Below are positions 383 through 24,347 of a DNA stretch of 24,347 nt, piece after piece (position 1 is the first letter of the stretch; each line of letters starts with the position of its first letter). The notes under the pieces are model-generated. The model saw nothing but the letters and a program-made list of their open reading frames with translations, had not been told where the DNA came from and ran no database searches. Location of the stretch: the NCBI GenBank assembly GCA_021372775.1, contig JAJFTU010000022.1, forward strand, positions 1-24,347, written 5' to 3'. The stretch is from a bacterium. Its GTDB lineage: Bacteria; Acidobacteriota; Polarisedimenticolia; J045. The translations under genes were made by a program, and so were the position numbers.

Positions 383-458
383 GCCCGGTTTCGACGAGGG
401 GCGGCCGCCCGGACGCTCGGCCCGGCGGCCGCCCCCCGCGTTGCACGAGGGGACGCAT

Positions 459-3400
459 GTGACGCTCTACCGCAAGGCGCTGCTCAACCTCGCTGTGGTC
501 TTGGTCCTCGCCGCGGTCGCCGTCTGGGCGGTCGCGCAGTGGGTCGTCGTCCGCGGCTTCGACGAGATCGAATACGCCGACGCGGAGCAGCACCTTCAGC
601 GGGCGGTCGCGGCGCTCGAGAACCGCCTCGCCGACGCCGACCGCTTCGCCCGCGACTGGGGCTCTTGGGACGACGCCTACCGCTACGTCGAGGAGCGCGG
701 CAAGGAGTTCGAGCGGTCCAACCTCGACGGCGCCGCCCTCGTCGCCTCGGAGGTCGAGATCGTCGCCTTCTTCGACGCCAAGGGGAACTTCGTCGCCGGG
801 CGGCGGCGGAACGGACGGAACGACCCGTACGCGCCGCTGGAGCGGGCGTCGCTCGCCGATCTCGTCGGCCCGACGCTCGCCGGCGGACCGCCGGTCGCGC
901 GCAAGGGCGTGGCCCTCGCCGGCGGACGGCCGCTGCTCGTGGCGGCGCGGCCGATCCTCCCCAGCTCCGAGATCGGCGCGCCCAAGGGCTGGCTGGTGAT
1001 GGCGCGGCCGTTCGACCGGGAAACCGTCCACGGGTTGACGCGCGACCTGCTGCTCGACCTGCACGTCGAATCGCTCGACGCGCCGGACGCCGCCGTTCCG
1101 CGGGCCGCGCTCGGCCGCGGCGACAAGACGGCGGTCGAGGCGGCGAACGACGACGCGCTGCTCGTCCACGGGATCCTGAAGGACATCGAAGGGCGCCCCG
1201 CGCTGGCGCTGGGGGTGGAGATCGACCGGACGATCCACCGTCGCGGCGTCGCGACCGCGCGCTTGATGCTCGTCTCGCTGGCGCTGGTCGGCGCGCTGAT
1301 CGGGATCGTCGTGCTGCACCGGATCGCGGGGGAGGTCGCGCGGCGGGTCGAGACGATGGAGCGGCGGCTGGCGGCGATCGCCGCGGGCGGCGACTTCTCC
1401 GGCCGCCTCGACGTCGGCGGCGAGCGGGACGAACTCGACCATCTGGCCGAGGGCGTCAACGGAACGCTCGCCGCCCTGCAGCGGGCGCGCGACGCGCAGG
1501 CGGCCAACGAGCGCGCCTACCGGGAACTGGTCCAGACGGCGAGCCAGGCGATCATCATCGTCGAAGAGGGGAAGATCGTCTTCGCCAACGCCATGGCCGA
1601 GGAGATGGGGGGGATCCCCGCCGCGGAGCTCGTCGGCGCCTCGGCCTTCTCCCGCGTCCACCCGCAGGACCGCGGGATGGTGCAGGAGCGCTACGCGGCG
1701 CTCGTCGCCGGCCGGGGCTCGGCCGGGCCGCTGGAGTGCCGGCTGCTGGACGCATCGGGCACGGTGAAGTGGATCCACCTCACGTCGACTCCGGTCGCCT
1801 GGCGCGGCGCGCCGGCGATCTCCTGCATCGCCGTCGACGTCTCCGCCGAGCGGCGCGCGCAGGAGGACCTGTCGCGGGCGAAGGACGCCGCCGAGGCGGC
1901 GAGCCGGATGAAGTCGCTGTTCGTCTCCACCGTCTCGCACGAGATCCGCACGCCGCTCAACTGCATCGTCGGCTTCGCGGAGCTGGCCGCGCGCGCCTCG
2001 TCGCTGGAGGAGGCGCGCGGGACGTCGCGGACGATCCTCAAGGAGTCGGAGACGCTGCTCGCGCTGATCAACGGCCTGCTGGACCACGCGAAGATCGAGG
2101 CGGGCCGGATGGAGCTCGACCCGCGCGCGGCCGACCTCCGCGCCTGGCTGGCCGACATCGCCGCCGGGACGCGGACGCGCGCCGCGGCCAAGGGGCTCGA
2201 GTTCTGGATCGAGGTCGGGCCGAACGTGCCGCGCTTCGTCGTCTTCGACGCGCTGCGCCTGCGCCAGGTGCTGCAGAACCTGCTTTCCAACGCGCTCAAG
2301 TTCACGCGCGCCGGCTGGGTCGGGGTCTCGGTCGCCATCGTCGAGCGGACGCCGCGCGAGGTCTCGCTCCGCTTCGCCGTGCAGGACACGGGGATCGGCA
2401 TCCCGCGGAACAAGCAGGCGACGATCTTCGAGAGCTTCGCCCAGGCCGACGGCGGCACGACCCGCCGCTACGGCGGCACCGGCCTCGGCACGACGATCGC
2501 GCGGCGGCTGGTCGAACTGATGGGCGGGACGATGTCGCTGGAGAGCGAGGAGGGAAAGGGCAGCACCTTCTCCTTCGTCGTCTCCTTCCCGACCGCCGAG
2601 GCGGCGGCCGCGGAGGAGGAAGCGCCGGCGTCGGCCGCCGCGCCCGCGGGCGGGCGGCGCGGACGCGCGCTGCTGATCGAGGACTACGAGCCGAACCAGG
2701 AACTCGCCCGCGCCCACCTCGAGGCGGACGGGTGGACCGTGGACGCCGCCGACGGCGGCGCGATCGGGGTCGAGGCCGCCTGCGCGACGGCCTACGACCT
2801 GATCCTGATGGACGTCAGCATGCCGGACATGGACGGCTGCGAGGCGACCCGCCGGATCCGCCGCGAGGGGGCGTCGCGCGGCGCGCCGATCGTCGCCGTC
2901 ACCGCGCACGCCGGCGAGGACGTGCGCCGCCGCTGCCTCGCCGCGGGGATGAACGACATCATCGCGAAGCCGATCCGCCGCGATTCGTTCCTCGCGGCCT
3001 GCGCCCGCTGGGCGGGCGCGGCGGCCGCCTCCTCGCCGCGACTCTCGCCGTCGGCCCCCGCGGGGCGGACTTCCGCCTCCGCGACGCGGCCCGCGCCGTC
3101 GGCCGCCGGGGGGCCGACTTCCTCCCCGGCGCCGGCCGAGGATGCGCCGGCGGGCGGACCGCCCGCGGCGGGCGCGCCGGCCGGCGACGCGCCGCTGGCG
3201 TGGGACCGCGGCGTGTCGGAGTTCGGCGGCGACGAAGCGCTCTTCGCGCGGATCCTGCGGCAGTTCCTGACCCGCAGCGCCGACGACGTCGCCGCGATCG
3301 AGGCCTCCGCCGCGGCTGGGGACCGGGACGCGGCGCGGGCCGTCGCGCACCGGCTCCGCGGCGGGGCGCTGAACCTGGGGGCCGACGCGCTCGGCGAGGC

Positions 3401-3524
3401 GGCGCGCCTCGTCGAGGAAGCGGCGGACGATCCGTCGGCGTCTTTGCCGCCTCCGGCCGCGCGGCTGCGCGAGGAGCGCGGGCGGCTGTTGCATTGGGCG
3501 GAGGACCGCCTGCACCGGGGGTGA
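459..3524 (+). CDS. Hybrid sensor histidine kinase / response regulator with a C-terminal Hpt domain. Domain order: TM-sensor-TM-HAMP-PAS-HisKA-HATPase_c-REC-Ala/Pro linker-Hpt.
   Basis: The ORF-track frame is 441..3524. The TTG at 441 opens the ORF, but the GTG at 459 is preceded by GAGGGGA (446-452) and is the more likely start. Two hydrophobic segments (LLNLAVVLVLAAVAVWAV and LMLVSLALVGALIGIVVL) bracket an extracytoplasmic domain of about 230 aa. The H-box is 'STVSHEIRTPLN'. The G-boxes are 'GTGIGIPRNKQATIFESF' and 'GGTGLGTTIARRLVELMGG'. The receiver domain is 'LLIEDYEPNQ...LILMDVSMPDMDG...IVAVTAHA...DIIAKP'. The Hpt-like C-terminus is 'HRLRGGALNLGADALGEAARLVEE'. Third-position GC is high in this frame only. 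Confidence 0.85.
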   Translation: MTLYRKALLNLAVVLVLAAVAVWAVAQWVVVRGFDEIEYADAEQHLQRAVAALENRLADADRFARDWGSWDDAYRYVEERGKEFERSNLDGAALVASEVEIVAFFDAKGNFVAGRRRNGRNDPYAPLERASLADLVGPTLAGGPPVARKGVALAGGRPLLVAARPILPSSEIGAPKGWLVMARPFDRETVHGLTRDLLLDLHVESLDAPDAAVPRAALGRGDKTAVEAANDDALLVHGILKDIEGRPALALGVEIDRTIHRRGVATARLMLVSLALVGALIGIVVLHRIAGEVARRVETMERRLAAIAAGGDFSGRLDVGGERDELDHLAEGVNGTLAALQRARDAQAANERAYRELVQTASQAIIIVEEGKIVFANAMAEEMGGIPAAELVGASAFSRVHPQDRGMVQERYAALVAGRGSAGPLECRLLDASGTVKWIHLTSTPVAWRGAPAISCIAVDVSAERRAQEDLSRAKDAAEAASRMKSLFVSTVSHEIRTPLNCIVGFAELAARASSLEEARGTSRTILKESETLLALINGLLDHAKIEAGRMELDPRAADLRAWLADIAAGTRTRAAAKGLEFWIEVGPNVPRFVVFDALRLRQVLQNLLSNALKFTRAGWVGVSVAIVERTPREVSLRFAVQDTGIGIPRNKQATIFESFAQADGGTTRRYGGTGLGTTIARRLVELMGGTMSLESEEGKGSTFSFVVSFPTAEAAAAEEEAPASAAAPAGGRRGRALLIEDYEPNQELARAHLEADGWTVDAADGGAIGVEAACATAYDLILMDVSMPDMDGCEATRRIRREGASRGAPIVAVTAHAGEDVRRRCLAAGMNDIIAKPIRRDSFLAACARWAGAAAASSPRLSPSAPAGRTSASATRPAPSAAGGPTSSPAPAEDAPAGGPPAAGAPAGDAPLAWDRGVSEFGGDEALFARILRQFLTRSADDVAAIEASAAAGDRDAARAVAHRLRGGALNLGADALGEAARLVEEAADDPSASLPPPAARLREERGRLLHWAEDRLHRG

Positions 3525-3527
3525 ACG

Positions 3528-3926
3528 ATGCGGATTCTGGTCGTGGACGACGACTTCGTCGGCCGGGAGAAACTGAAGGCGATCCTCGCGCCGTACGGGG
3601 ACGTGGACGCCGTTCCGGACGGCGAGGTCGCGGTGCGGATGGTCGACGCCGCGCACCGCGACGGGGCGCCGTACCACCTGGCGACGATGGACGTGAACCT
3701 GCCCGGTCTCTCGGGCGCCGGCGCCGTGGCGCAGATCCGCGTGATCGAGAAGGCGAAGGGGATCGCGGAAGGCTGCGGGACGAAGGTGCTGATGATCTCG
3801 GCGCGCGCCGACAGCGGCGCCGTCCTCTCGTCGTTCCGCTTCGGCTGCGAGGGGTACCTCGTGAAGCCGGCGACTCCGGACAACGTCGGCGCCGCGCTGG
3901 AGAAGATGGGAATCGCGCGGGTTTGA
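3528..3926 (+). CDS. Single-domain response regulator (REC only, CheY-like, no output domain).
   Basis: 'MRILVVDDDFVGRE...LATMDVNLPGLSG...KVLMISARAD...EGYLVKP' carries the receiver-domain acidic pocket, the phospho-acceptor Asp in 'MDVNLPG', and the conserved S/T and K positions. The ATG lies 3 nt after the HK stop, so the two genes are translationally coupled. Confidence 0.8.
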   Translation: MRILVVDDDFVGREKLKAILAPYGDVDAVPDGEVAVRMVDAAHRDGAPYHLATMDVNLPGLSGAGAVAQIRVIEKAKGIAEGCGTKVLMISARADSGAVLSSFRFGCEGYLVKPATPDNVGAALEKMGIARV

Positions 3927-14512: not shown

Positions 14513-15559
14513 TCAGAGCGCTTCGTCGAGCGCGGCGAGCGCGTCGTCCCAGCGCGGCGCCGGCGGAGCGGCGGCGAGGCGCGCGAGGAGCGTCGCCTGC
14601 CGCGCGACCGACGAGCGGAGCGCCGCGGCGTCGAGCCGGCCGCTCTCGAGCGCGGCGGCGACTTCGTCCCGCGCGCGGCGCGGGGCGTCGAGCCCGCGGC
14701 AGAAGAGGGCCAGATCGCACCCCGCGGCGAGCGCGCGCGTCGCCCGCTCGCCGGGCGCGCCGAGCGCGGCGACGGCGCCCATCTCGAGGTCGTCGCTCAC
14801 GATCAGGCCGGAGAAGCCGATCCGCCCGCGCAGCCATTCGCCGACGAGCCGCGCGCTGAATGTCGCCGGTCCGGCCTCCGGCCCCTCGACCGCGGGGTAC
14901 GCGGCGTGCGCCGTCATGACCAGCGGCGCGCTCTTGGCGAGATCGACGTAGGGACGGAGGTGCGCGTCCCACAGCTCCTTCTCGCCGAGCGGGCTCCGCG
15001 CGAGGCCGACGTGCGTGTCGAGGTCGGTGCCGCCGAGCCCCGGGAAATGCTTGAGGCATCCCGCGACCCCCGCGTCCTCGAGTCCCGCCAGCACGGCTCC
15101 GTCGAGAGCCGCGGCCCGCCCCGGATCGAGGCCGAACGAGCGCGCGCCGATCGCGTTCGTCCCCGGCCCCTCGTCGAGGTCGGCGACCGGCGCGAAGTCG
15201 ACGTTGAAGCCGACGGCGCGCAGCGCGCCGCCGACGAGCCGCCAGACGTCGCGCAGCCGCTCTTCCCCCCACGCGCCCTGCGCGCGCCCCTCGGGGAGAC
15301 GGCGGAAGACCGGCGCGATCTCGGCGAGGCGGTTGACCTTCCCGCCTTCCTCGTCCACGGCGAGGAGGAACGGGCGGCCGAGGATCTCGGCCAGCGCCGA
15401 GGCGAGGTCGCGCGTCTGCGCGGCGCTCTTGAGGTTGCGCGCGAAGAGGATCGCGCCGGCGGGGGCGAGGTCGCGCAGCGCGGCCTCGTCGGCGGGGGAG
15501 ACGTCGGGACCGGGAAGCGCCGCGACGATCAGGCGCCCGGGATCGAGAAGGGAGGCCAT
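14513..15559 (-). CDS. nagZ: Beta-N-acetylhexosaminidase (glycoside hydrolase family 3, NagZ-like).
   Basis: 'FLLAVDEEGGKVNRL...GFNVDFAPVADL...CLKHFPGLGGTDLDTH...LVMTAHAAYPAV...GFSGLIVSDDLEMGAV' are GH3/NagZ hallmark motifs (DEEGG, KHFPG-G, SDDLEMGA). Confidence 0.85.
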   Translation of the reverse strand: MASLLDPGRLIVAALPGPDVSPADEAALRDLAPAGAILFARNLKSAAQTRDLASALAEILGRPFLLAVDEEGGKVNRLAEIAPVFRRLPEGRAQGAWGEERLRDVWRLVGGALRAVGFNVDFAPVADLDEGPGTNAIGARSFGLDPGRAAALDGAVLAGLEDAGVAGCLKHFPGLGGTDLDTHVGLARSPLGEKELWDAHLRPYVDLAKSAPLVMTAHAAYPAVEGPEAGPATFSARLVGEWLRGRIGFSGLIVSDDLEMGAVAALGAPGERATRALAAGCDLALFCRGLDAPRRARDEVAAALESGRLDAAALRSSVARQATLLARLAAAPPAPRWDDALAALDEAL

Positions 15560-15603
15560 GGGGCGATTGTGTCGGCGCGGCCGCGGCCCGTCAACGCGGC
15601 GGC

Positions 15604-15609
15604 TATACT
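15604..15609 (+). promoter_or_regulatory. Possible -10 element (TATACT) for cls. It would give a leaderless or near-leaderless transcript.
   Basis: TATACT lies 8 nt before the cls ATG (15618), in the 58-bp divergent nagZ/cls intergenic region. No convincing -35 was found. Confidence 0.2.
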
Positions 15610-15617
15610 ACGAAGCG

Positions 15618-16877
15618 ATGAGCCTTCTCTCTCGCTCGGCGGCGGTCGCCGCCGTGGTGGCGCTGGCGGCGCTCGGCGTCGGCTGCGCCTCGTACCCGCG
15701 TTACCGCTACCAGCCCCGCCTCACCGCGGCGGGGGCCGACGTGCAGGCGGCGCTCTCGATCGCCGGCGGCAACGAGGTCTCGGACGGGAACAAGGTGGAC
15801 GTGCTGGTCAACGGCGACCAGGTGTTCCCGGCGATGCTGGAGGCGATCCGCGGCGCGCGGAACAACGTCCACCTCGAGACCTACATCTTCCGCGACGGCG
15901 AGATCGGCCGGCGGTTCGTCGACGCGCTCGTCGAGCGCGCGCGGGCCGGCGTGAAGGTGCGGCTGCTGCTCGACGGCATCGGGTCGCTCGGCTTCGGCGA
16001 GGAGAACGAGGCCAGGCTGCGCGAGGCGGGGGTGCAGGTCGTCTTCTTCCGCCCGCTCAAGCTCTCCAACCTCTTCAAGCTCCATCTCCGCACCCACCGC
16101 AAGTACCTGATCGTCGACGGGCGGATCGGCTTCACCGGCGGGATCTGCATCGACGACTCGTGGATGGGGAACGCCGACCGGCCCGACCGCTGGCGCGAGA
16201 CGCAGGTCCGCGTCGAGGGGCCGGTGGCGCGGCAGATGCAGTCCGGCTTCGCCCGCGCCTGGCTCGAGGCGACGGGGGAACTGCTCAGCGCGCAGGCGCT
16301 CTACCCGACGATCGACCGCGTCGGCGACCAGCGCTGCCAGATCATGGAGTCGGCGCCCGGCTTCAAGGGGAACCCGGCCCGGCTCTCGTTCCTCGTCGCC
16401 GTCGCCTCGGCGAAGCGGTCGATCGACGTCACGAACGCCTACTTCGTGCCGGACGGCGTGGCGCTCGAGGCGCTGGAGAAGGCCGCCCAGCGCGGCGTGC
16501 AGGTGCGGCTGCTCCTGCCGAGCCGCAACACCGACGTCAAGTCGGTCCGCTACGCGGGACGCAGCTACTACCGGCGGCTGCTCGAGGCGGGCGTCGGGAT
16601 CTACGAGTACGAGCCGTCGCGCCTCCACGCCAAGACGATGGTCGTGGACGGCGAGTGGGCCACGGTCGGCTCGACGAACCTCGACCGCCGCTCGTTCGTC
16701 TGGAACTACGAGTCGAACCTGAACTGCTTCGACCGCCGCGTCGCCGAGGAGCTGACGCGGATCTACGAGGCCGACCTCGCCAAGTCGTCGAAGGTCGAGC
16801 TGGCGGCGTGGAAGAAGCGGCCGTTCGGGGAACGCGTGCTCGAAACGTTCTACGGGCTGTTCCGCTCGCAGTTCTGA
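15618..16877 (+). CDS. cls: Cardiolipin synthase / phospholipase-D family protein with a lipoprotein signal peptide.
   Basis: Two HKD motifs are present: 'HRKYLIVDGRIGFTGGICIDD' and 'HAKTMVVDGEWATVGSTNLDRRS'. The N-terminus 'AAVVALAALGVGCASY' has a lipobox (LGVGC). Confidence 0.85.
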   Translation: MSLLSRSAAVAAVVALAALGVGCASYPRYRYQPRLTAAGADVQAALSIAGGNEVSDGNKVDVLVNGDQVFPAMLEAIRGARNNVHLETYIFRDGEIGRRFVDALVERARAGVKVRLLLDGIGSLGFGEENEARLREAGVQVVFFRPLKLSNLFKLHLRTHRKYLIVDGRIGFTGGICIDDSWMGNADRPDRWRETQVRVEGPVARQMQSGFARAWLEATGELLSAQALYPTIDRVGDQRCQIMESAPGFKGNPARLSFLVAVASAKRSIDVTNAYFVPDGVALEALEKAAQRGVQVRLLLPSRNTDVKSVRYAGRSYYRRLLEAGVGIYEYEPSRLHAKTMVVDGEWATVGSTNLDRRSFVWNYESNLNCFDRRVAEELTRIYEADLAKSSKVELAAWKKRPFGERVLETFYGLFRSQF

Positions 16878-17115
16878 GCGTCGTTTCCGTCCCCGAGTCG
16901 CGCCGCGCGGCGGCGTCCGTCCCGCGCCGCTCGTCCGCGAAAGACCGCAGCCGTTTCGGACGGGACGCCCCTTTTCGGGCGCGCCGCCCATCTCCTCGCG
17001 CCGGCGGCGGTCAAGTTCGCCCCACCCTGTCCGATAAGCAGCCCGCAAGGCCGCGTGGGCCGGGAAAGGAATCGTCCTTGGTCCCGGCGAACGACGCGCG
17101 GATCGGCGGGAACAG

Positions 17116-18816
17116 ATGGCGACCTGCGCCCCGATGTTGGACGGCGGAGCGGCCGCGGCTGCGGTCGGAGCGTCCGTCCGGAGTCTCCGCGAAGCGGCGG
17201 GGAGGCTCGAAGCGCTCTTCTGCGGGGCGGGCGGCCGTCTGGCCGAACTCCACGCCCGCGCGCTCGACATCGCGTCGCGCTCGACGGCGGAGGCGGAGCG
17301 GCTCGGCGGCGACGAACTGCGCGCCGCGCGGGACGAGATGCTCGACCTTCTCGACCGCCTCGACCGCTACGCCGCGACCTCCGGCGAGCAGATCGAGCGG
17401 GCCGAACGACGGCTCGGCGAGCTGCTCGAGGCGCTGGACGCCGCCACGTCGCGCATCCCGCAGTTCGAGCGGCTGGTCCAAATGCTGCGGATCCTCGGCA
17501 TCTCGACGAAGATCGAAAGCTCGCGCCTCTCCCGCAGCGACATCGGCTTCGACACCCTGTCCAAGAACGTCGAGGCGCTGGCGATGCGGATCCGCGCCAA
17601 GACCGACGATCTCGCCTCGCTCGGCGGTGGCCTCGCCGCGCGGGCGCGGGCGTCGGCGGCCCGGGCGCGCGACCTGCGGTCGGCCCGCTGCGGCCGCTTC
17701 GCCGCGGCGATCGCCGAGACCCGCGCCAGCGCCGACCTGCTCGCCTCGAGCTGCGCGCGCGGCGCGCGGGCCGCGGCGGCGGCGGCGGAGACGACGAGCC
17801 AGGTCGCCGCGGCGGTCGGCGACATCGTCACCTCGATGCAGTTCCACGACATCACGCGGCAGGAGCTCGAGCACGTGCGCGAGGCGGTCGCCGAGCTGTC
17901 GTTCGCCGACGAAGGCGCCGGGCGCGTCTGCGCGCTGCAGGCGGCGCAGCTGGGCAACTCCCGCGGCCGGCTGGCCGCCGCGGTCGCCTCGGCGCGCGAG
18001 AGCTTCGGCGGCATCGGGCGGCGGCTCACGCTCCTCGCCGGGACGACCGGCGAGCGCGACGCCGGCGCGGGCGCCGGGTCGCTCGAGCGGCTGGACCGGT
18101 CGCTCGTGCCGGTGGCCGACGAGCTGGCCGCCGACGAGGCGTCGTACGGCGCGCTGGCCGAAGTGACCGACGCGGTCGCGTCCGCGGCCGAGGACATGTC
18201 GCGCCTCGCCGCCGAGATCGAGTCGATCGGAGCGGAGGTCGGGCGGATCGCGCTCAACGCCAGCGTGAAGGCGGCCCACACCGGCGCGGAAGGGGCCGCG
18301 CTCGGCGTGCTCGCGGAGGAGATCCAGCGGCTGGCGACCGACACCCGCCGGCGCACCGGCGAGCTCGCCGCGCCGCTCCGCGGCGTGGCCGCGGCCGCCG
18401 CGGAGATCCGGCGCGACGTGAAGGGCGCGGAGAGCTCCGGCGCGCACGGGTCGGGGAAGGGGCTCGGCGACGAGATGCGCCGCCTGGCCGCGAACCTCTC
18501 CGCCTTCGCCGGGCGCGGCGCCGCCGCCGGGATCGAGCGGGACGCCCGTTCCCTCGCCTCGGAGCTGGACGCCGTCGCCGCCGGCTTCGCCGGCCACGCC
18601 GCGGTGGACGGCGAGCTCGCGGACGTGGAGCGGGCGCTGCGCGGCGCGGCCGAGGCCTGCGGCGCCTCGGAGCTCGACGCGGACGATCTCGCGCACTTGG
18701 CGGCCCGGTACACGACCGGCGCCGAGCGGCGCGTGCACGAAGAACTGATCGGCGGCGTCGCGGGCGCTCCCGGCGAGGCCGCGGGCGAATTCGGCGACAA
18801 CGTCGAGCTGTTCTAG
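17116..18816 (+). CDS. Soluble, atypical MCP-like protein. It has no TM segment, two degenerate MCP signalling-tip-like motifs and a central CheZ-like D-x3-Q motif.
   Basis: Residues 126-158 'ILGISTKIESSRLSRSDIGFDTLSKNVEALAMR' and 371-405 'IGAEVGRIALNASVKAAHTGAEGAALGVLAEEIQRLATDT' both follow the canonical MCP tip pattern 'ILALNAAIEAARAGEqGRGFAVVAdEVRkLAerT'. 'SMQFHDITRQELEHV' at residues 240-254 resembles the CheZ active-site segment 'AQDFQDLTGQVIKRM'. The protein is first in an operon with STAS-CheY-CheA-MCP. The start codon is uncertain. Confidence 0.55.
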   Translation: MATCAPMLDGGAAAAAVGASVRSLREAAGRLEALFCGAGGRLAELHARALDIASRSTAEAERLGGDELRAARDEMLDLLDRLDRYAATSGEQIERAERRLGELLEALDAATSRIPQFERLVQMLRILGISTKIESSRLSRSDIGFDTLSKNVEALAMRIRAKTDDLASLGGGLAARARASAARARDLRSARCGRFAAAIAETRASADLLASSCARGARAAAAAAETTSQVAAAVGDIVTSMQFHDITRQELEHVREAVAELSFADEGAGRVCALQAAQLGNSRGRLAAAVASARESFGGIGRRLTLLAGTTGERDAGAGAGSLERLDRSLVPVADELAADEASYGALAEVTDAVASAAEDMSRLAAEIESIGAEVGRIALNASVKAAHTGAEGAALGVLAEEIQRLATDTRRRTGELAAPLRGVAAAAAEIRRDVKGAESSGAHGSGKGLGDEMRRLAANLSAFAGRGAAAGIERDARSLASELDAVAAGFAGHAAVDGELADVERALRGAAEACGASELDADDLAHLAARYTTGAERRVHEELIGGVAGAPGEAAGEFGDNVELF

Positions 18817-18825
18817 GAGGACGCG

Positions 18826-19179
18826 ATGGAAGCGACGTGGGCGATCGACGACGGCGTGGGGACGCTCGCGCTCGGCGGCGCGCTGACGATCGAGTCGGCG
18901 GCGGAACTGAAGGCCGCCCTGCTTCGCGCGTTGGACGAGGCGCCGGTCGTGGCGCTGCGCTTCGAGGACGACGCGCGGCCGGACGTCTCCTGCGTGCAGC
19001 TGCTCTGCGCCGCGCACCGCTCGGCGATGCGGCGCGGAACGACCTTCGCGCTCCGCGGACCGCTGCCCGCGACGCTCGCCGCGGTCGTGGGCGAGTTCGC
19101 GCCCTGCGTTCCGGGCGCCGCGGCCGGCGCGGTCTGCCTGTGGGAAGGAAGGGGGGACGGATGTCAAAAGAGATCCTGA
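18826..19179 (+). CDS. STAS-domain protein (anti-sigma-factor-antagonist fold).
   Basis: 'TLALGGALTIESAAELKAALLRAL...VVALRFEDDARPDVSCVQLLCAAHRSAMRRGTTFALRG' has the STAS/SpoIIAA-like pattern. The canonical phosphorylatable Ser of the 'DSSGL' motif is absent here, where the sequence reads 'LCAAH'. A strong RBS AGGAGG lies 5 nt upstream. The 3' end overlaps the cheY start by 19 nt. Confidence 0.55.
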   Translation: MEATWAIDDGVGTLALGGALTIESAAELKAALLRALDEAPVVALRFEDDARPDVSCVQLLCAAHRSAMRRGTTFALRGPLPATLAAVVGEFAPCVPGAAAGAVCLWEGRGDGCQKRS

Positions 19180-19529
19180 TCGTCGACGACTCGACGAGCA
19201 TGCGGCAGATGGTCGCGTTCACCCTGCGGGGCGCCGGCTACGCCGTGCTCGAGGCGGCGGACGGGCGCGAGGCGCTCGACCGCTTCTCGGCCTCGCCCGA
19301 GGTGGGGCTGGTCGTCACCGACCTCAACATGCCGAACCTCGACGGGATCGGGCTGATCAAGGCGCTGCGGGCGCAGCCGCGCGGGCGCTTCCTGCCGATC
19401 CTGATGCTGACCACCGAATCCCAGGACGCGCGGAAGCAGGAGGGGAAGGCCGCCGGCGCGACGGGATGGATCGTCAAGCCGTTCCGCCCCGAACAGCTGG
19501 TGGCGGTCGTGCAGAAGGTGCTCAAGTGA
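19161..19529 (+). CDS. cheY: Chemotaxis response regulator CheY.
   Basis: 'ILIVDDSTSMRQMVAFTLRGAGYAVLEAADGREALD...VVTDLNMPNLDGIGLIKALR...ILMLTTESQ...GATGWIVKPF' is a single REC domain with the CheY-type 'TDxNMP' motif and K-P-F. The stop overlaps the GTG start of cheA. Confidence 0.85.
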   Translation: MSKEILIVDDSTSMRQMVAFTLRGAGYAVLEAADGREALDRFSASPEVGLVVTDLNMPNLDGIGLIKALRAQPRGRFLPILMLTTESQDARKQEGKAAGATGWIVKPFRPEQLVAVVQKVLK

Positions 19530-21631
19530 TCGACCAGCATCGCGCGGCGTTCGTGGAGGAGGCGACCGAGCTGCTCGGGGAGCTCGAGACGACCCTCCTG
19601 ACGCTCGAGGAGAACCCTCGGGACCGCGAGATCATCGACCGCGTCTTCCGCGCCCTGCACACGATCAAGGGCTCCGGGGCGATGTTCGGCTTCGACGCCG
19701 TCGCCGCCTTCACCCACGAGCTGGAGACCGCGTTCGACCGCGTGCGCCGCGGCGAGCTCGAGGTCTCGACCGCGCTGATCGAGCTGACGCTCGCCGCGCG
19801 CGACCACATCCGCGACCTGCTCGACGTCGAGGGGACGCCGGACGAAGTGCAGCGGGTCCGCGGCGCCGCGGTCGTCGAGGCGCTGCTCGCGCTCTGCCCG
19901 CGCCGGGACGCGCCGGCCGCCGCGGCGGAGGCGCCCCGCGCCCCGTCGTCGTCGGCCGCCGCGGCCGGCGCGGAAACGACGTACCGGATCCGCTTCAAGC
20001 CGCCGGCCGACATCTTCCTGCGCGGCGGCGACCCCTCGGCGCTGATGGCCGAGCTGGCCGGCCTCGGCGCGCTGCGCTTCGCGCTGCGGACCGACGATCT
20101 CCCGCCGCTCGAGGAACTCGACCCCGAACAGTGCCGCTGCTCCTGGGAGGCGGTCCTGACGACGAGCCGGCCGCTCGACGACGTGCGGAACGTCTTCGTC
20201 TTCTTCGAGGACGACGCCGAGCTGCGGATCGACGTCGTCGACGTGGACGCCGACGAAGGGGCGCCGCCGAAGCGGCTGGGCGAGATCCTCGTCGAACGCG
20301 GCGACGTCTCCGAGGACGCGGTGCGGGCCGCGCTGGCGACGCAGCGGCGGATCGGCGACGTCCTGATCGAGCAGGGGCTCGTGTCGCCGGCCAAGGTCCA
20401 CGCCGCGGCGGTCGAGCAGAAGGCGGTGCAGGACGCGCGGACGAAGCGCCAGACGGCCGAGGCGGCGTCGAGCGTGCGGGTCGCCGCGGAGCGGCTCGAC
20501 CAACTCGTCAACCTCGTCGGGGAGCTGGTCACCGTGCAGGCGCGCTTCTCGGCGACCGCGCTGCGGCGCGGCGACCAGGAGCTCGCCGCGCTGGCCGAGG
20601 AGGTCGAGCGGCTGACCTGGGAGCTGCGCGACACGGCGATGAACATGCGGATGCTGCCGATGGGGGCGACGTTCGCCAAGTTCCGCCGCCTCGTGCGCGA
20701 CCTGGCCCGCGACCTCGGCAAGGAAGTGGAGCTGGAGACCGAAGGGGCGGAGACCGAGCTCGACAAGACGGTCATCGACCGCCTCGGCGAGCCGCTGGTC
20801 CACCTCGTGCGCAACGCCGTGGACCACGGCATCGAGGCGCCGGAGGCGCGCGCGGAGCGGGGCAAGCCCCGCGCCGGCACGGTGCGGCTCTCCGCGGCGC
20901 ACATGGGGGCGAGCGTCGTCGTCGAAGTGCGCGACGACGGCGCCGGCCTCGACGCGGAGGCGATCCGCGCCAAGGCGGTCGAGCGGGGGCTGCTCCCGCC
21001 GGGCGCCGAGCCGTCGGAGCAGGACCTCTTCGCGCTGATCTTCCATCCGGGGTTCTCGACGGCGAAGCAGGTGTCGAGCGTCTCCGGGCGCGGCGTCGGG
21101 ATGGACGTCGTGAAGCAGGCGATCGACGCGCTGCACGGGCAGATCGAGGTCCGCTCGCGGCGCGGCGAGGGCACCACCGTCGCGGTCAAGCTGCCGCTGA
21201 CGTTGGCGATCATCGACGGCCTTCTCGTCGGCGTCGGCGGCGAGCGCTACGTCCTGCCGCTCTCCGTCGTGCAGGAGTGCGTGGAGCTGACGCGCGCCGA
21301 CGCGGAGGCGATGCACGGCCGGCGCGTGGCTTCGGTCCGCGGGCGGCTCGTGCCGTACGTGCGGCTGCGCGAGATGTTCGACGAACCGGGCGAGCGGCCG
21401 GCGATCGAGCAGATCGTGATCGTGTCGGCGGAAGGACGCGAGATCGGACTGGTCGTGGACCACATCGTGGGCGAGCACCAGACGGTCATCAAGTCGTTGG
21501 GACGGGTCTACAAGGACATCGTGGAACTTTCGGGCTCGACGATCCTCGGAGACGGCAGCGTCGCGCTGATTCTGGACGTGCCGAAGATCGTCGAGAGGGC
21601 CGAGAACGAGGAGCGCGCGCTCACGGCGTGA
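19526..21631 (+). CDS. cheA: Chemotaxis histidine kinase CheA (Hpt P1, dimerisation, HATPase and CheW-like P5 domains).
   Basis: P1 'FRALHTIKGSGAMFGF' contains the phospho-His. The kinase core has 'HLVRNAVDHGIE' and 'GRGVGMDVVKQAI'. The C-terminal CheW-like domain is 'LLVGVGGERYVLPLSVVQECVEL...EIGLVVDHIVGEHQTVIKSLG'. A GTG start at 19526 is preferred over the in-track ATG at 19466, which lies inside cheY. Confidence 0.85.
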   Translation: MIDQHRAAFVEEATELLGELETTLLTLEENPRDREIIDRVFRALHTIKGSGAMFGFDAVAAFTHELETAFDRVRRGELEVSTALIELTLAARDHIRDLLDVEGTPDEVQRVRGAAVVEALLALCPRRDAPAAAAEAPRAPSSSAAAAGAETTYRIRFKPPADIFLRGGDPSALMAELAGLGALRFALRTDDLPPLEELDPEQCRCSWEAVLTTSRPLDDVRNVFVFFEDDAELRIDVVDVDADEGAPPKRLGEILVERGDVSEDAVRAALATQRRIGDVLIEQGLVSPAKVHAAAVEQKAVQDARTKRQTAEAASSVRVAAERLDQLVNLVGELVTVQARFSATALRRGDQELAALAEEVERLTWELRDTAMNMRMLPMGATFAKFRRLVRDLARDLGKEVELETEGAETELDKTVIDRLGEPLVHLVRNAVDHGIEAPEARAERGKPRAGTVRLSAAHMGASVVVEVRDDGAGLDAEAIRAKAVERGLLPPGAEPSEQDLFALIFHPGFSTAKQVSSVSGRGVGMDVVKQAIDALHGQIEVRSRRGEGTTVAVKLPLTLAIIDGLLVGVGGERYVLPLSVVQECVELTRADAEAMHGRRVASVRGRLVPYVRLREMFDEPGERPAIEQIVIVSAEGREIGLVVDHIVGEHQTVIKSLGRVYKDIVELSGSTILGDGSVALILDVPKIVERAENEERALTA

Positions 21632-21764: not shown

Positions 21765-24347
21765 ATGTTGGACAACGTGAAGATCGGCAGGAAGCTCGTC
21801 GGCGGGTTCGCCGCCGTCGCCGCCGTCGCCGCCCTCGTCGGCGGGATCGGCGTCGTGACCATCACGCGCACGGACAAGGCGCAGGCCGAGCTGCTGGACC
21901 GCGTCCAGGCGGTCAACGGCGGGCTGGACGCGGCGAACGCCTCCTACGACGCGCTGCGCACCGCCGCGCGGCGCTACGCCGGCGCGAAGACGGCGGGCGA
22001 GCGGGACGGCATGCGGGCCCAGTTCGCCGCCGCCGGCGAGAACTTCGACGCCGCGCTGCGCGGGCTGGACAAGGCCGAGGCGGACGCGACGTCGCGCCGC
22101 GCGCTCGAGGGGGTCCGCGACGCCTGCGTCGCCTACCGCGCCGTGCTGGACAAGGTGGCCGGCCTGATCGACGGCGGCCGCGAGGACCGCGGGCGCGAAC
22201 TCCTCGACACCGACGCCCAGACCGCGGCGGCCCGCGTCGCCGGCGCGACGGCCTCCGCGCGCAAGGACATCTCCGAGCAGGCGAACGCCGCGTCCGACGC
22301 CCTGTCGTCGTCCGCGGACCGCGCCGTCGCGCTGATGATCGTCGTGCTGGTCCTCGGCGTCGCCTTCGCTCTCTTCTTCGGCGTCATGCTCGCCCGTTCG
22401 ATCGCCGCGCCGCTGGCGCAGGGGCTCGAGATGATGCAGGAGCTGGCCCTCGGCCGGCTCGGCCGCCGTCTGCGGCTCGGCCGGCAGGACGAGGTCGGCG
22501 AGTTGGCCCGCGGCATGGACCAGTTCGCGGACCAGCTGTCGGCGATCGCCAAGGAGCTGCGCCGCGTGGGCGACGGCGACCTCGCCGCCTCCCTGACGCC
22601 GCAGTGCGCCGAGGACGAGATCTCCCCGGCCTTCAACCAGACCGTCAAGGCGGTCAACGGCCTCGTCACCGAGATGGAGCGGGTCACCGGCGCGGCCGGC
22701 GGCGGCGACTTCTCGGCCCGCGTCGAGGCGGCGCGCTTCGCCGGCGCCTACCGCGACGTCGCCGAAGGGGTCAACCGGACGCTCGACATCGTGCTCGAGA
22801 AGACCGACTGGTACGAGGCGATCATCGACGCCGTGCCGTTCCCGATCCACGTCACCGACGAAGAGATGAAGTGGACGTTCCTCAACCGGCCGTTCGAGAA
22901 GCTGATGGTCGAGCGCGGCGCCGTGCGCGACCGCAAGGACGCCGTCGGCCGCCCGTGCAGCACGGCCAACGCCAACATCTGCAACTCGCAGGGCTGCGGC
23001 ATCCGCCAGCTCCAGCGCGGGATCAACGAGAGCTTCTTCGACTGGTGCGGCATGAGCTGCAAGCAGGACACCGCCGAGCTGCGCGACCGCAAGGGGAAGA
23101 AGCTGGGCTACGTCGAAGTCGTCACCGACCTGACCTCGATCCTGCGGGCGCAGGACTACACCAACGTCGAAGTCGAGCGGATGGCCGGGAACCTCTCCCG
23201 CCTCGCCGAGGGGCGGCTCGACCTCGACATGACGCTGCCCGAGGCCGACCAGCACACGCAGAAGGTCCGCGCGCAGTTCGGCAAGATCCACGACAGCCTC
23301 TCGCTGGCCAAGGACGCGGTCTCGGCGCTCGTCGACGACGGCAAGATGCTGGCCAAGGCCGCGGTCGAGGGGAAGCTCGCGACGCGCGCCGACGCCTCGC
23401 GCCACAAGGGCGAGTTCCGCGCGGTCGTGCAGGGCGTGAACGACACGCTCGACGCGGTGATCGGCCCGCTGAACGTCGCCGCCGGCTACGTCCACCGGAT
23501 CTCGAAGGGCGAGGTCCCGGAGAAGATCACCGACGCCTACCAGGGCGACTTCAACACGATCAAGAACAACATCAACGCCTGCGTGGACGGCCTCGCCGGG
23601 CTCGTCGAGGCCGACGCGGTGCTGCAGCGGATGGCGGTCAACGACTACACCAAGACCGTCCAGGGGAGCTACGCCGGGATCTTCGCCGACGTCGCCAAGG
23701 CGACCAACCTCGTCCACTCGCGGGTGGACCACACGATCGACATCCTCAAGAGCGCCGCGATCGGCGACCACGCCAAGGACCTCGAGGACCTCAAGCGGGT
23801 CGGCCGGCGGTCGGAACACGACACGCTGATTCCGGCGATGATCCAGCTGCTGGAGGCCAACGACGGCGTCGCGTCGGCGGCGATCGCGCTGTCGAAGGGC
23901 GACCTGCGGCTCGCCGTCAAGGAGCGGTCGGAGAACGACCAGTTGATGCGGGCGATGAAGACGATGATCGCGCGCCTCACCGAGGTCGTCGGCGAGGTCA
24001 AGTCGGCGGCCGAGAACGTCGCCTCCGGCTCGCAGCAGATGAGCAGCGGGGCCGAGGAGCTCTCCTCCGGCGCCAGCGAGCAGGCGGCGGCGGCCGAAGA
24101 GGCTTCCTCCTCGATGGAGGAGATGGCGAGCAACATCCGCCAGAACGCCGACAACGCCAACCAGACGGAGAAGATCGCCGTCAAGGCGGCCGACGACGCG
24201 CGCGAGGGCGGCAAGGCGGTGCAGCAGACGGTCGCCGCGATGAAGGAGATCGCCGAGAAGATCTCGATCATCGAGGAGATCGCGCGGCAGACGAACATGC
24301 TGGCGCTCAACGCGGCGATCGAGGCCGCCCGCGCCGGCGAGCACGGC
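21765..24347 (+). CDS. Large methyl-accepting chemotaxis protein with one TM segment and multiple HAMP-like repeats. The 3' end lies beyond the window.
   Basis: The frame is open from ATG 21765 to the window end (861 codons). It has the 4HB_MCP-like N-terminal TM segment 'AVALMIVVLVLGVAFALFFGVML' followed by HAMP. A Cys-rich insert reads 'CSTANANICNSQGCGIRQL...CGMSC'. The sequence ends in the MCP signalling-domain start '...IARQTNMLALNAAIEAARAGEHG'. RBS GGGGGAGAG lies 4 nt upstream. Confidence 0.8.
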   Translation, partial: MLDNVKIGRKLVGGFAAVAAVAALVGGIGVVTITRTDKAQAELLDRVQAVNGGLDAANASYDALRTAARRYAGAKTAGERDGMRAQFAAAGENFDAALRGLDKAEADATSRRALEGVRDACVAYRAVLDKVAGLIDGGREDRGRELLDTDAQTAAARVAGATASARKDISEQANAASDALSSSADRAVALMIVVLVLGVAFALFFGVMLARSIAAPLAQGLEMMQELALGRLGRRLRLGRQDEVGELARGMDQFADQLSAIAKELRRVGDGDLAASLTPQCAEDEISPAFNQTVKAVNGLVTEMERVTGAAGGGDFSARVEAARFAGAYRDVAEGVNRTLDIVLEKTDWYEAIIDAVPFPIHVTDEEMKWTFLNRPFEKLMVERGAVRDRKDAVGRPCSTANANICNSQGCGIRQLQRGINESFFDWCGMSCKQDTAELRDRKGKKLGYVEVVTDLTSILRAQDYTNVEVERMAGNLSRLAEGRLDLDMTLPEADQHTQKVRAQFGKIHDSLSLAKDAVSALVDDGKMLAKAAVEGKLATRADASRHKGEFRAVVQGVNDTLDAVIGPLNVAAGYVHRISKGEVPEKITDAYQGDFNTIKNNINACVDGLAGLVEADAVLQRMAVNDYTKTVQGSYAGIFADVAKATNLVHSRVDHTIDILKSAAIGDHAKDLEDLKRVGRRSEHDTLIPAMIQLLEANDGVASAAIALSKGDLRLAVKERSENDQLMRAMKTMIARLTEVVGEVKSAAENVASGSQQMSSGAEELSSGASEQAAAAEEASSSMEEMASNIRQNADNANQTEKIAVKAADDAREGGKAVQQTVAAMKEIAEKISIIEEIARQTNMLALNAAIEAARAGEHG

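Follow-up and report, generated by a model that had tools for sequence, protein, structure and literature searches.

Chemoreceptors with two signalling domains are already known from the F9 chemosensory systems, in which DosM (VC1403), shaped as an extended rod, stabilises cytoplasmic arrays of two layers (PMC7534058; PMC9321776) and is essential for array formation (PMC7534058). Two signalling domains are all that 98% of DosM homologues contain (PMC9321776), and DosM is encoded together with a triple-CheW protein, the genes being ordered MWB...RYA (PMC9321776 Table S1; PMC7534058). CheZ is recognised by the extended signature AxxF(Y)Q-DxxxQ (PMC7750401), and F17 systems encode a CheW:CheZ fusion (PMC9321776 Table S1). 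In the alphaproteobacterial order icpA/atu0514-cheS-cheY1-cheA, the STAS protein CheS, which binds to CheA, accelerates the dephosphorylation of CheY1-P (as summarised in PMC12654446), while Atu0514 is a protoglobin-HAMP protein with a single 36H signalling domain (PMC8466855); STAS-cheY-cheA also begins F7 'stage 1' clusters (PMC7184735). The present analysis concerns a gene at 17116-18816 of a 24,347-nucleotide stretch of DNA from an Acidobacteriota bacterium (GenBank assembly GCA_021372775.1, contig JAJFTU010000022.1; the whole stretch is called the window), which encodes a 566-residue protein, here called the target, that belongs to a family distinct from DosM. It is read, tentatively and at a probability of roughly 0.4, as a double-hairpin scaffold that integrates into the array, bears a CheZ-type phosphatase site for CheY-P and ends in a docking tail.

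Architecture and spread of the family

The gene and the elements of its product discussed below are as follows.

17116 to 18816, + strand: target open reading frame (ORF), 566 residues, soluble, with two hairpins like those of methyl-accepting chemotaxis proteins (MCPs); full-length relatives exist
17464 to 17589, + strand: tip 1 (residues 117-158), F..LV..LRILGISTKIESSRLSRSDIGFDTLSKNVEALAMR; conservation, AlphaFold2 U-turn 138-144, MCPsignal matches in relatives
17827 to 17886, + strand: CheZ-like helix (residues 238-257), VTSMQFHDITRQELEHVREA; conservation, Pfam CheZ matches in 10 of 40 relatives
17929 to 17952, + strand: CALQAAQL (residues 272-279), which opens the second repeat behind a loop whose length varies; at least 90% conservation at Q275 and Q278, AlphaFold2 loop 260-267
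18217 to 18336, + strand: tip 2 (residues 368-407), IESIGAEVGRIALNASVKAAHTGAEGAALGVLAEEIQRLA; MCPsignal, MCP tips in the PDB, conservation
18706 to 18738, + strand: RYTTGAERRVH (residues 531-541; RYTMxxERxVH in the family); Y532 invariant, T533, E537, R538 and H541 at least 90% conserved
18751 to 18813, + strand: flexible linker (residues 546-559) and putative docking motif GDNVELF (residues 560-566); pLDDT below 50

The third-position GC of the frame is 0.95, as expected at a window GC of 74%, so the ORF is taken to be a real gene. Because the maximum 19-residue hydropathy of its product is only 1.14, against 3.0 in a transmembrane MCP encoded downstream, the protein should be soluble and a membrane segment is not expected. 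Translation and hydropathy thus agree with an initial annotation of the window, which had described a soluble 566-residue protein, and the three motif strings that it singled out are all found in the translation where it placed them, at residues 126-158 (ILGISTKIESSRLSRSDIGFDTLSKNVEALAMR), 241-254 (MQFHDITRQELEHV) and 371-405 (IGAEVGRIALNASVKAAHTGAEGAALGVLAEEIQR). These blocks are not chance strings, as they are among the most conserved columns of an alignment of 150 family sequences. No known sensor domain was detected in the window protein.

A word-indexed search returned only 17 relatives, all of them (17/17) with a precomputed PF00015 assignment, and a profile search of 1.84 billion cluster representatives gave 2,284 relatives at E<1e-30, the best 150 of which are all full-length at about 600 residues. 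Scanning one genome per species with the pattern HDI[TVI]RQ[QRK]xEH yielded at least 529 confirmed loci or species, with carriers in Geobacterales, Desulfovibrionaceae, Syntrophorhabdus, Ignavibacteria/Melioribacteraceae, Kuenenia, Acidobacteriota, Synergistia and other groups. Members are annotated at source as 'hypothetical protein' or 'methyl-accepting chemotaxis protein', and a literal motif search of the literature found no paper that mentions a QFHD-type motif; the target is a member of a large uncharacterised family.

Conservation was scored in the alignment of 150 family sequences, with the numbering of the window protein. L124, E134, Q242, D245, R248, Q249, N381 and Y532 are invariant, and H244, E252, H253, G390 and G393 are at least 90% conserved. 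From the N-terminus, the conserved blocks follow one another as E-x-x-F-L-x-x-G, tip 1, the QFHD helix, L-Q-x-A-Q-L, tip 2, R-Y-T-M-x-x-E-R-x-V-H and G-D-N-V-E-L-F. In tip 1, beside the invariant L124 and E134, the residues F117, L127, I133, F145 and L155 reach at least 90%; in tip 2, L396 does so together with the two glycines, around the invariant N381.

Both tips resemble those of MCPs. Residues 350-439 of the window protein match Pfam MCPsignal at 29.3 bits, under the gathering score of 34.6 and over tip 2 only, and tip 2 matches the MCP tips of solved PDB structures at E 4e-4. The N-half fragment of the window protein itself has no MCPsignal match; among N-half fragments of ten relatives, MCPsignal is the best Pfam family in seven (E 5e-10 to 0.013), and fragments of two relatives exceed its gathering score, at 39.9 and 35.0 bits. 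The two halves of the family alignment, N (residues 20-262) and C (residues 266-520), match each other in hhalign over 223 columns (probability 97.8%, E 8.5e-13); tip 1 is aligned with tip 2, and the QFHD helix falls on a weaker helix, 'I-x-V-H', in the second repeat. This alignment and the MCPsignal matches on both halves across the family indicate that the whole signalling hairpin was duplicated in tandem, and on sequence grounds the family is concluded to have arisen by such a duplication and to carry two MCP-type tips. The half-against-half alignment also disposes of the alternative that the two motifs are the N- and C-arms of a single tip, leaving two separate tips, as the initial annotation had held.

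The residues of a canonical tip (N381, E385, R388 and G-x-G-F in Tsr numbering) are divided between the two copies. Tip 1 keeps E134, R137, G144 and F145 and is without the Asn, and tip 2 keeps N381, G390 and G393 (as G-x-x-G), with K and H replacing E and R, and L replacing F. An AlphaFold2 model built from 150 sequences (predicted local distance difference test score, pLDDT, 89.7; predicted template modelling score 0.76) begins with helices over residues 10-137, a U-turn at 138-144 in tip 1, helices over 145-259 and a loop at 260-267. It continues with a helix over 268-312, a loop at 313-318 and one unbroken helix over 319-440, and ends with helices over 447-514, two short helices and a disordered tail. 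In the model, tip 1 is thus a hairpin, and tip 2 runs through a straight helix rather than a hairpin; each hairpin arm, on this model, measures about 17-18 heptads. In Foldseek, the top PDB matches are MCPs. Mean-field direct coupling analysis of the topology was dominated by gap artefacts, with an Meff of about 200 and a positive control that was barely detected.

A methyl-accepting function was considered for the family and rejected for want of a conserved methylation consensus: [ASTG][ASTG]xx[EQ][EQ]xx[ASTG][ASTG] has no occurrence in the window protein and no position common to at least 8 of the 150 members. The sole conserved [EQ][EQ] pair, Q249-Q/E250, lies within the QFHD motif.

The QFHD helix and the C-terminal tail

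In the family, the helix S-M-Q-F-H-D-I-T-R-Q-Q-x-E-H-V has a polar, invariant core and sits at the tip-distal end of hairpin 1. When 40 middle segments (residues 222-300 of members) were scanned singly against Pfam, with matches reported up to E 10, CheZ (PF04344) matched 10/40, and no other family matched more than two; 30 C-terminal segments of the same proteins, scanned as a control, gave no recurrent Pfam family. The best CheZ match had an E-value of 2e-5 among the segments and of 9.5e-6, at 26.1 bits, for a 47-residue fragment, and the matches always span positions 107/108 to 135-157 of the hidden Markov model (HMM). In a 45-residue fragment of E. coli CheZ (the sequence used is identical to 1KMI chain Z), D143 and Q147 fall on HMM positions 129 and 133, and the best family fragment places D245 and Q249 on these same positions, that is, on the catalytic pair of CheZ. 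The 43-residue alignment to CheZ that this implies contains 10 identities and keeps the hydrophobic heptad pattern, and every hhalign run against CheZ gave its best local alignment in the same register. The catalytic D-x3-Q feature on the C-terminal helix of the hairpin is thus present in the target, with both residues invariant, and the target version of the extended signature reads S-x-x-F-H-D-x-x-x-Q (S240, F243, H244), with His for Gln.

Several observations weigh against taking this helix for a CheZ site. All CheZ scores lie under the gathering score of 30.7 bits, the best of the relatives reaching 25.0-26.1; the window protein has no CheZ match in Pfam, whether scanned whole or as its own segment; 30 of the 40 middle segments are likewise without a match, and the 10 members that do match are related to each other and hence not independent. 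Comparison by hhalign with E. coli CheZ or with nine beta/gamma CheZ sequences gave P 0.03-0.2 and a probability of about 1%, with a CheZ profile for which the homologue search found only close enterobacterial CheZ and to which four plasmid-borne CheZ genes were added. In the reverse direction, 120 CheZ sequences and 4,613 decoy ORFs were not told apart by an HMM built from the family segment. Single spurious Pfam matches near E 1e-3 arise on helical segments of this kind, and the CheZ E-values are therefore somewhat optimistic. The residue preceding the Asp is His, as opposed to a highly conserved Gln in CheZ; the invariant or conserved R248, E252, H253, Y532, E537 and H541 have no CheZ counterpart and may indicate another function; and the tail of the target is unlike the C-terminal peptide of CheZ, QDxVDDLLxSLGF. 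Of the CheZ likeness claimed in the initial annotation, more than the bare motif is borne out, through the recurrence of this one Pfam family, with D245/Q249 on D143/Q147; the sub-threshold scores and the lack of significance in the profile and reverse tests do not carry it further. The resemblance appears real at the level of the motif and is suggestive of function, short of a demonstration of homology.

The C-terminal region, including RYTMxxERxVH, gave no Pfam family match. After this block, the proteins continue with a tail of 19-156 residues (median 36) that is rich in A, G, E, D, S and P and has an xVELF-like end in 234 of 236 family members. In 23 of the 236 (P0051, P0085, P0040, P0090 and others), xVELF is present in 2-6 tandem copies in acidic disordered tails, which is characteristic of a multivalent short linear docking motif. 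The arrangement recalls NWETF, the pentapeptide by which MCPs tether CheR and CheB, in that a variable flexible linker likewise leads to a five-residue motif ending in Phe, and NVELF of the target equals NWETF at three of five positions. It differs from NWETF in that position 2 is Val or Ile, not aromatic, and in that the motif also occurs as internal tandem copies; the xZxxZ definition of the MCP tether requires an aromatic residue at position 2. The motif is kept in at least one cluster without nearby CheR or CheB (locus L002, where the product P0011 ends in GANVELF). Judged by sequence, the xVELF tail is formally like both the CheY-binding peptide of CheZ and the NWETF tether and matches neither.

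The operon and its relatives

The target gene is followed on the same strand by four genes.

18826 to 19179, + strand: STAS-domain protein, 117 residues; Pfam STAS_2 E 2.7e-10, 9 nt past the target stop
19161 to 19529, + strand: CheY-type single-domain response regulator, 122 residues; NCBIfam CheY E 5e-22, overlaps the STAS gene, position conserved
19526 to 21631, + strand: CheA (Hpt, dimerisation, HATPase, CheW-like) by Pfam; NCBIfam CheA E 2e-142, overlaps the CheY gene; start GTG 19526 or ATG 19466
21765 to 24347, + strand: transmembrane MCP (4HB_MCP, HAMP, HAMP_2, MCPsignal) by Pfam and hydropathy (3.0); the window ends within its tip

Across about 80 loci of other genomes, target, STAS, CheY and CheA follow one another almost without exception, which bears out the view of the initial annotation that the target leads a chemosensory operon. 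A STAS gene lies directly 3' of the target in at least 55 related loci, and a STAS-sized gap is found in most others. Beyond CheA, on its 3' side, the loci vary between CheR-CheB, CheW-MCP-CheR-CheB and other genes, and the target clusters of many genomes contain no other receptor or CheW. The CheW ORFs in these loci are 157-204 residues long and thus single-domain.

The P2 domain of CheA is its CheY-docking domain. In its place, the CheA of the window carries at 20273-20416 an MshEN-type motif for binding cyclic di-GMP (c-di-GMP), RLGEILVERGDVSEDAVRAALATQRRIGDVLIEQGLVSPAKV (NCBIfam NF053729, E 7.7e-11, 41.6 bits at a cut-off of 38). Most related loci encode a CheA with at least the first half of this motif, and the motif with both its halves occurs in Geomonas, Fundidesulfovibrio, Syntrophorhabdus, Kuenenia and Acidobacteriota; among the related loci compared, it is absent from the CheA of the Ignavibacteria, Bacteroidota, Bacillota and Synergistia versions.

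Several other features of these loci were noted. In L002, a 4HB_MCP-HisKA_3 kinase and a GerE-type regulator (15005-17019) are inserted between the CheA and the MCP-CheW genes. A Syntrophorhabdaceae metagenome-assembled genome (L043, 7881-9689) has an orphan family member with all motifs intact and no che genes within 8 kb, its neighbours being an acyl-CoA ligase, an epimerase, LepA and a HemN-like gene. In the window, the gene immediately upstream of the target is PLD-like, of the cardiolipin-synthase type (15603-16877), and a PLDc gene (L001, 3213-4667) is found about 5 kb upstream of the Fundidesulfovibrio homologue; the presence of such a gene near the target in both loci is probably a coincidence. 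Farther upstream, the window opens at 2-382 inside another MCP gene, of which only the 3' end is present, ending in ...LIPLDDDEERLKSF, and at 441-3926 it encodes a hybrid sensor kinase (CHASE4, HAMP, PAS, HisKA, HATPase, REC, Hpt), directly after which comes a single-domain response regulator.

Candidate functions and known systems

The target family may bear on how its carrier lineages switch off CheY-P and arrange their cytoplasmic che modules; Geobacter is reported to be without cheZ genes (PMC2577667, Table 1). Either of the two functions proposed in the initial annotation, phosphatase-like or receptor decoy, is putative. If the target is a scaffold with a CheZ-type site, its tips would either insert it into a CheA array in the cytoplasm or nucleate one, and the conserved QFHD helix would act like the catalytic helix of CheZ, with D245 pairing with the active-site Lys of CheY and Q249 positioning the attacking water. 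The xVELF tail would tether a partner, for which the CheY of the same operon is the simplest candidate. CheY-P would then be dephosphorylated by the very scaffold that carries the kinase, and the phosphatase would sit at the signal source, where CheZ is also placed when bound to CheA-short or fused to CheW in F17. A phosphatase of this kind would represent a new way to place signal termination at the kinase, as well as a second, independent double-tipped receptor family besides DosM. It is doubtful that the integration goes further, with one polypeptide joining a receptor-like, CheA-organising core to a phosphatase of its own CheY; here, the two non-identical tips may form a single-chain pseudo-dimer, with one hairpin for array contacts and the other for CheA, in a pathway on which c-di-GMP might additionally act as a gate, via the MshEN motif in the CheA protein. 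Such an organiser and phosphatase in a single polypeptide would, if true, be the chemosensory counterpart of bifunctional kinase/phosphatase sensors.

The CheZ likeness would be coincidental if the target were a cytoplasmic sensor receptor, in which the polar cluster away from the tips (E32, Q242, H244, D245, R248, Q249, E252, H253, Q275, Q278, Y532, E537, R538, H541) would form a four-helix-bundle site for a metal, a cofactor, a small molecule or the STAS protein, and the tips would signal to CheA. This is somewhat less probable than the scaffold with a phosphatase site, even though the CheZ statistics are weak, many invariant His, Glu, Asp and Tyr residues have no counterpart in CheZ, and the target is the only receptor-like gene in many complete target-STAS-CheY-CheA-CheR-CheB clusters. 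The absence of any detected sensor domain speaks against a sensor, as does the lack of a conserved methylation consensus although CheR and CheB are often present, and a sensor would leave unexplained why CheZ alone recurs on the helix, and in the catalytic register. Should the protein prove to be a sensor, its conserved head would constitute a new cytoplasmic input module.

A purely structural role, in which a DosM-like scaffold uses its tips to bridge or stabilise a CheA array in the cytoplasm and the conserved motifs have no role beyond packing or the binding of a partner, would suit a soluble protein with two MCP signalling hairpins and no sensor domain, as in the 98% of DosM homologues mentioned above (PMC9321776), and DosM is essential for array formation (PMC7534058). 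It is nevertheless considered improbable, since packing alone fails to explain the invariant exposed polar residues or the docking tail, the triple CheW that is the signature of F9 is absent from the approximately 80 loci, the gene order is unlike the MWB...RYA of F9, and the arms of about 17-18 heptads (inferred from the AlphaFold2 model) contrast with the 44H of F9 receptors. The residues H244 and D-x3-Q also copy H-DxxxQ, the H-box of HisKA_3 kinases such as NarX and DesK. The target might then be a phosphotransfer element whose hairpin, like that of a dimerisation and histidine phosphotransfer (DHp) domain, takes or passes on the phosphate of CheY-P as a sink or relay. H244 is at least 90% conserved and directly precedes D245, and in the model a loop and a returning helix come after the QFHD helix, as in a DHp hairpin, but an ATPase domain is absent, HisKA_3 is not among the families matched by the 40 segments (HisKA was matched once, at E 0.04), and the family actually matched is CheZ. 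With no support from the Pfam scan, the H-box similarity was rejected, and phosphotransfer is very unlikely.

Among described systems, the Geobacter Esn and alpha/beta group clusters (PMC5585712; PMC2577667) differ in gene content, and a link to them was not established. The alphaproteobacterial icpA/atu0514-cheS-cheY1-cheA cluster has the same order as the target locus: a soluble receptor, a STAS protein, CheY and CheA. Atu0514 differs from the target in having neither the double hairpin nor the QFHD motif, and orthology with IcpA/Atu0514 was rejected in view of its protoglobin-HAMP-36H architecture (PMC8466855) and because tblastn on plasmids gave no match.

DosM and the target share solubility, two tandem MCP signalling domains, the lack of a sensor domain and a location in a che cluster, and the suggestion of the initial annotation that the combination belongs to no described family must be qualified to this extent, as receptors with a double signalling domain are known from F9. 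It holds in that the target family is not DosM. Both domains of DosM are ordinary Pfam MCPsignal domains of class 44H, whereas the target tips are highly divergent and stand on the shorter arms described above. The order target-STAS-Y-A-(W-M)-R-B, without CheW3 in the approximately 80 loci, differs from that of the DosM cluster, and membership of the target in DosM was rejected for these two reasons, gene order and lack of CheW3 (PMC9321776). The QFHDITRQ helix, RYTMxxERxVH and the xVELF tail are unreported for DosM.

With CheZ (PF04344), the target shares a long helical hairpin with F-x-D-[LI]-T-x-Q at the same heptad positions, a small residue and a Phe ahead of the motif (AxxFQ in CheZ, SxxFH in the target), and a flexible linker leading to a conserved C-terminal peptide, although the peptide sequences are unrelated; it differs in being 2.6 times longer and built on MCP hairpins. 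The F17 CheW:CheZ proteins resemble it in that an array component is physically joined to a CheZ-type element. In F17, the carrier is CheW and the CheZ domain is recognisable as such, whereas the target would combine a receptor-like carrier with a single CheZ-like helix.

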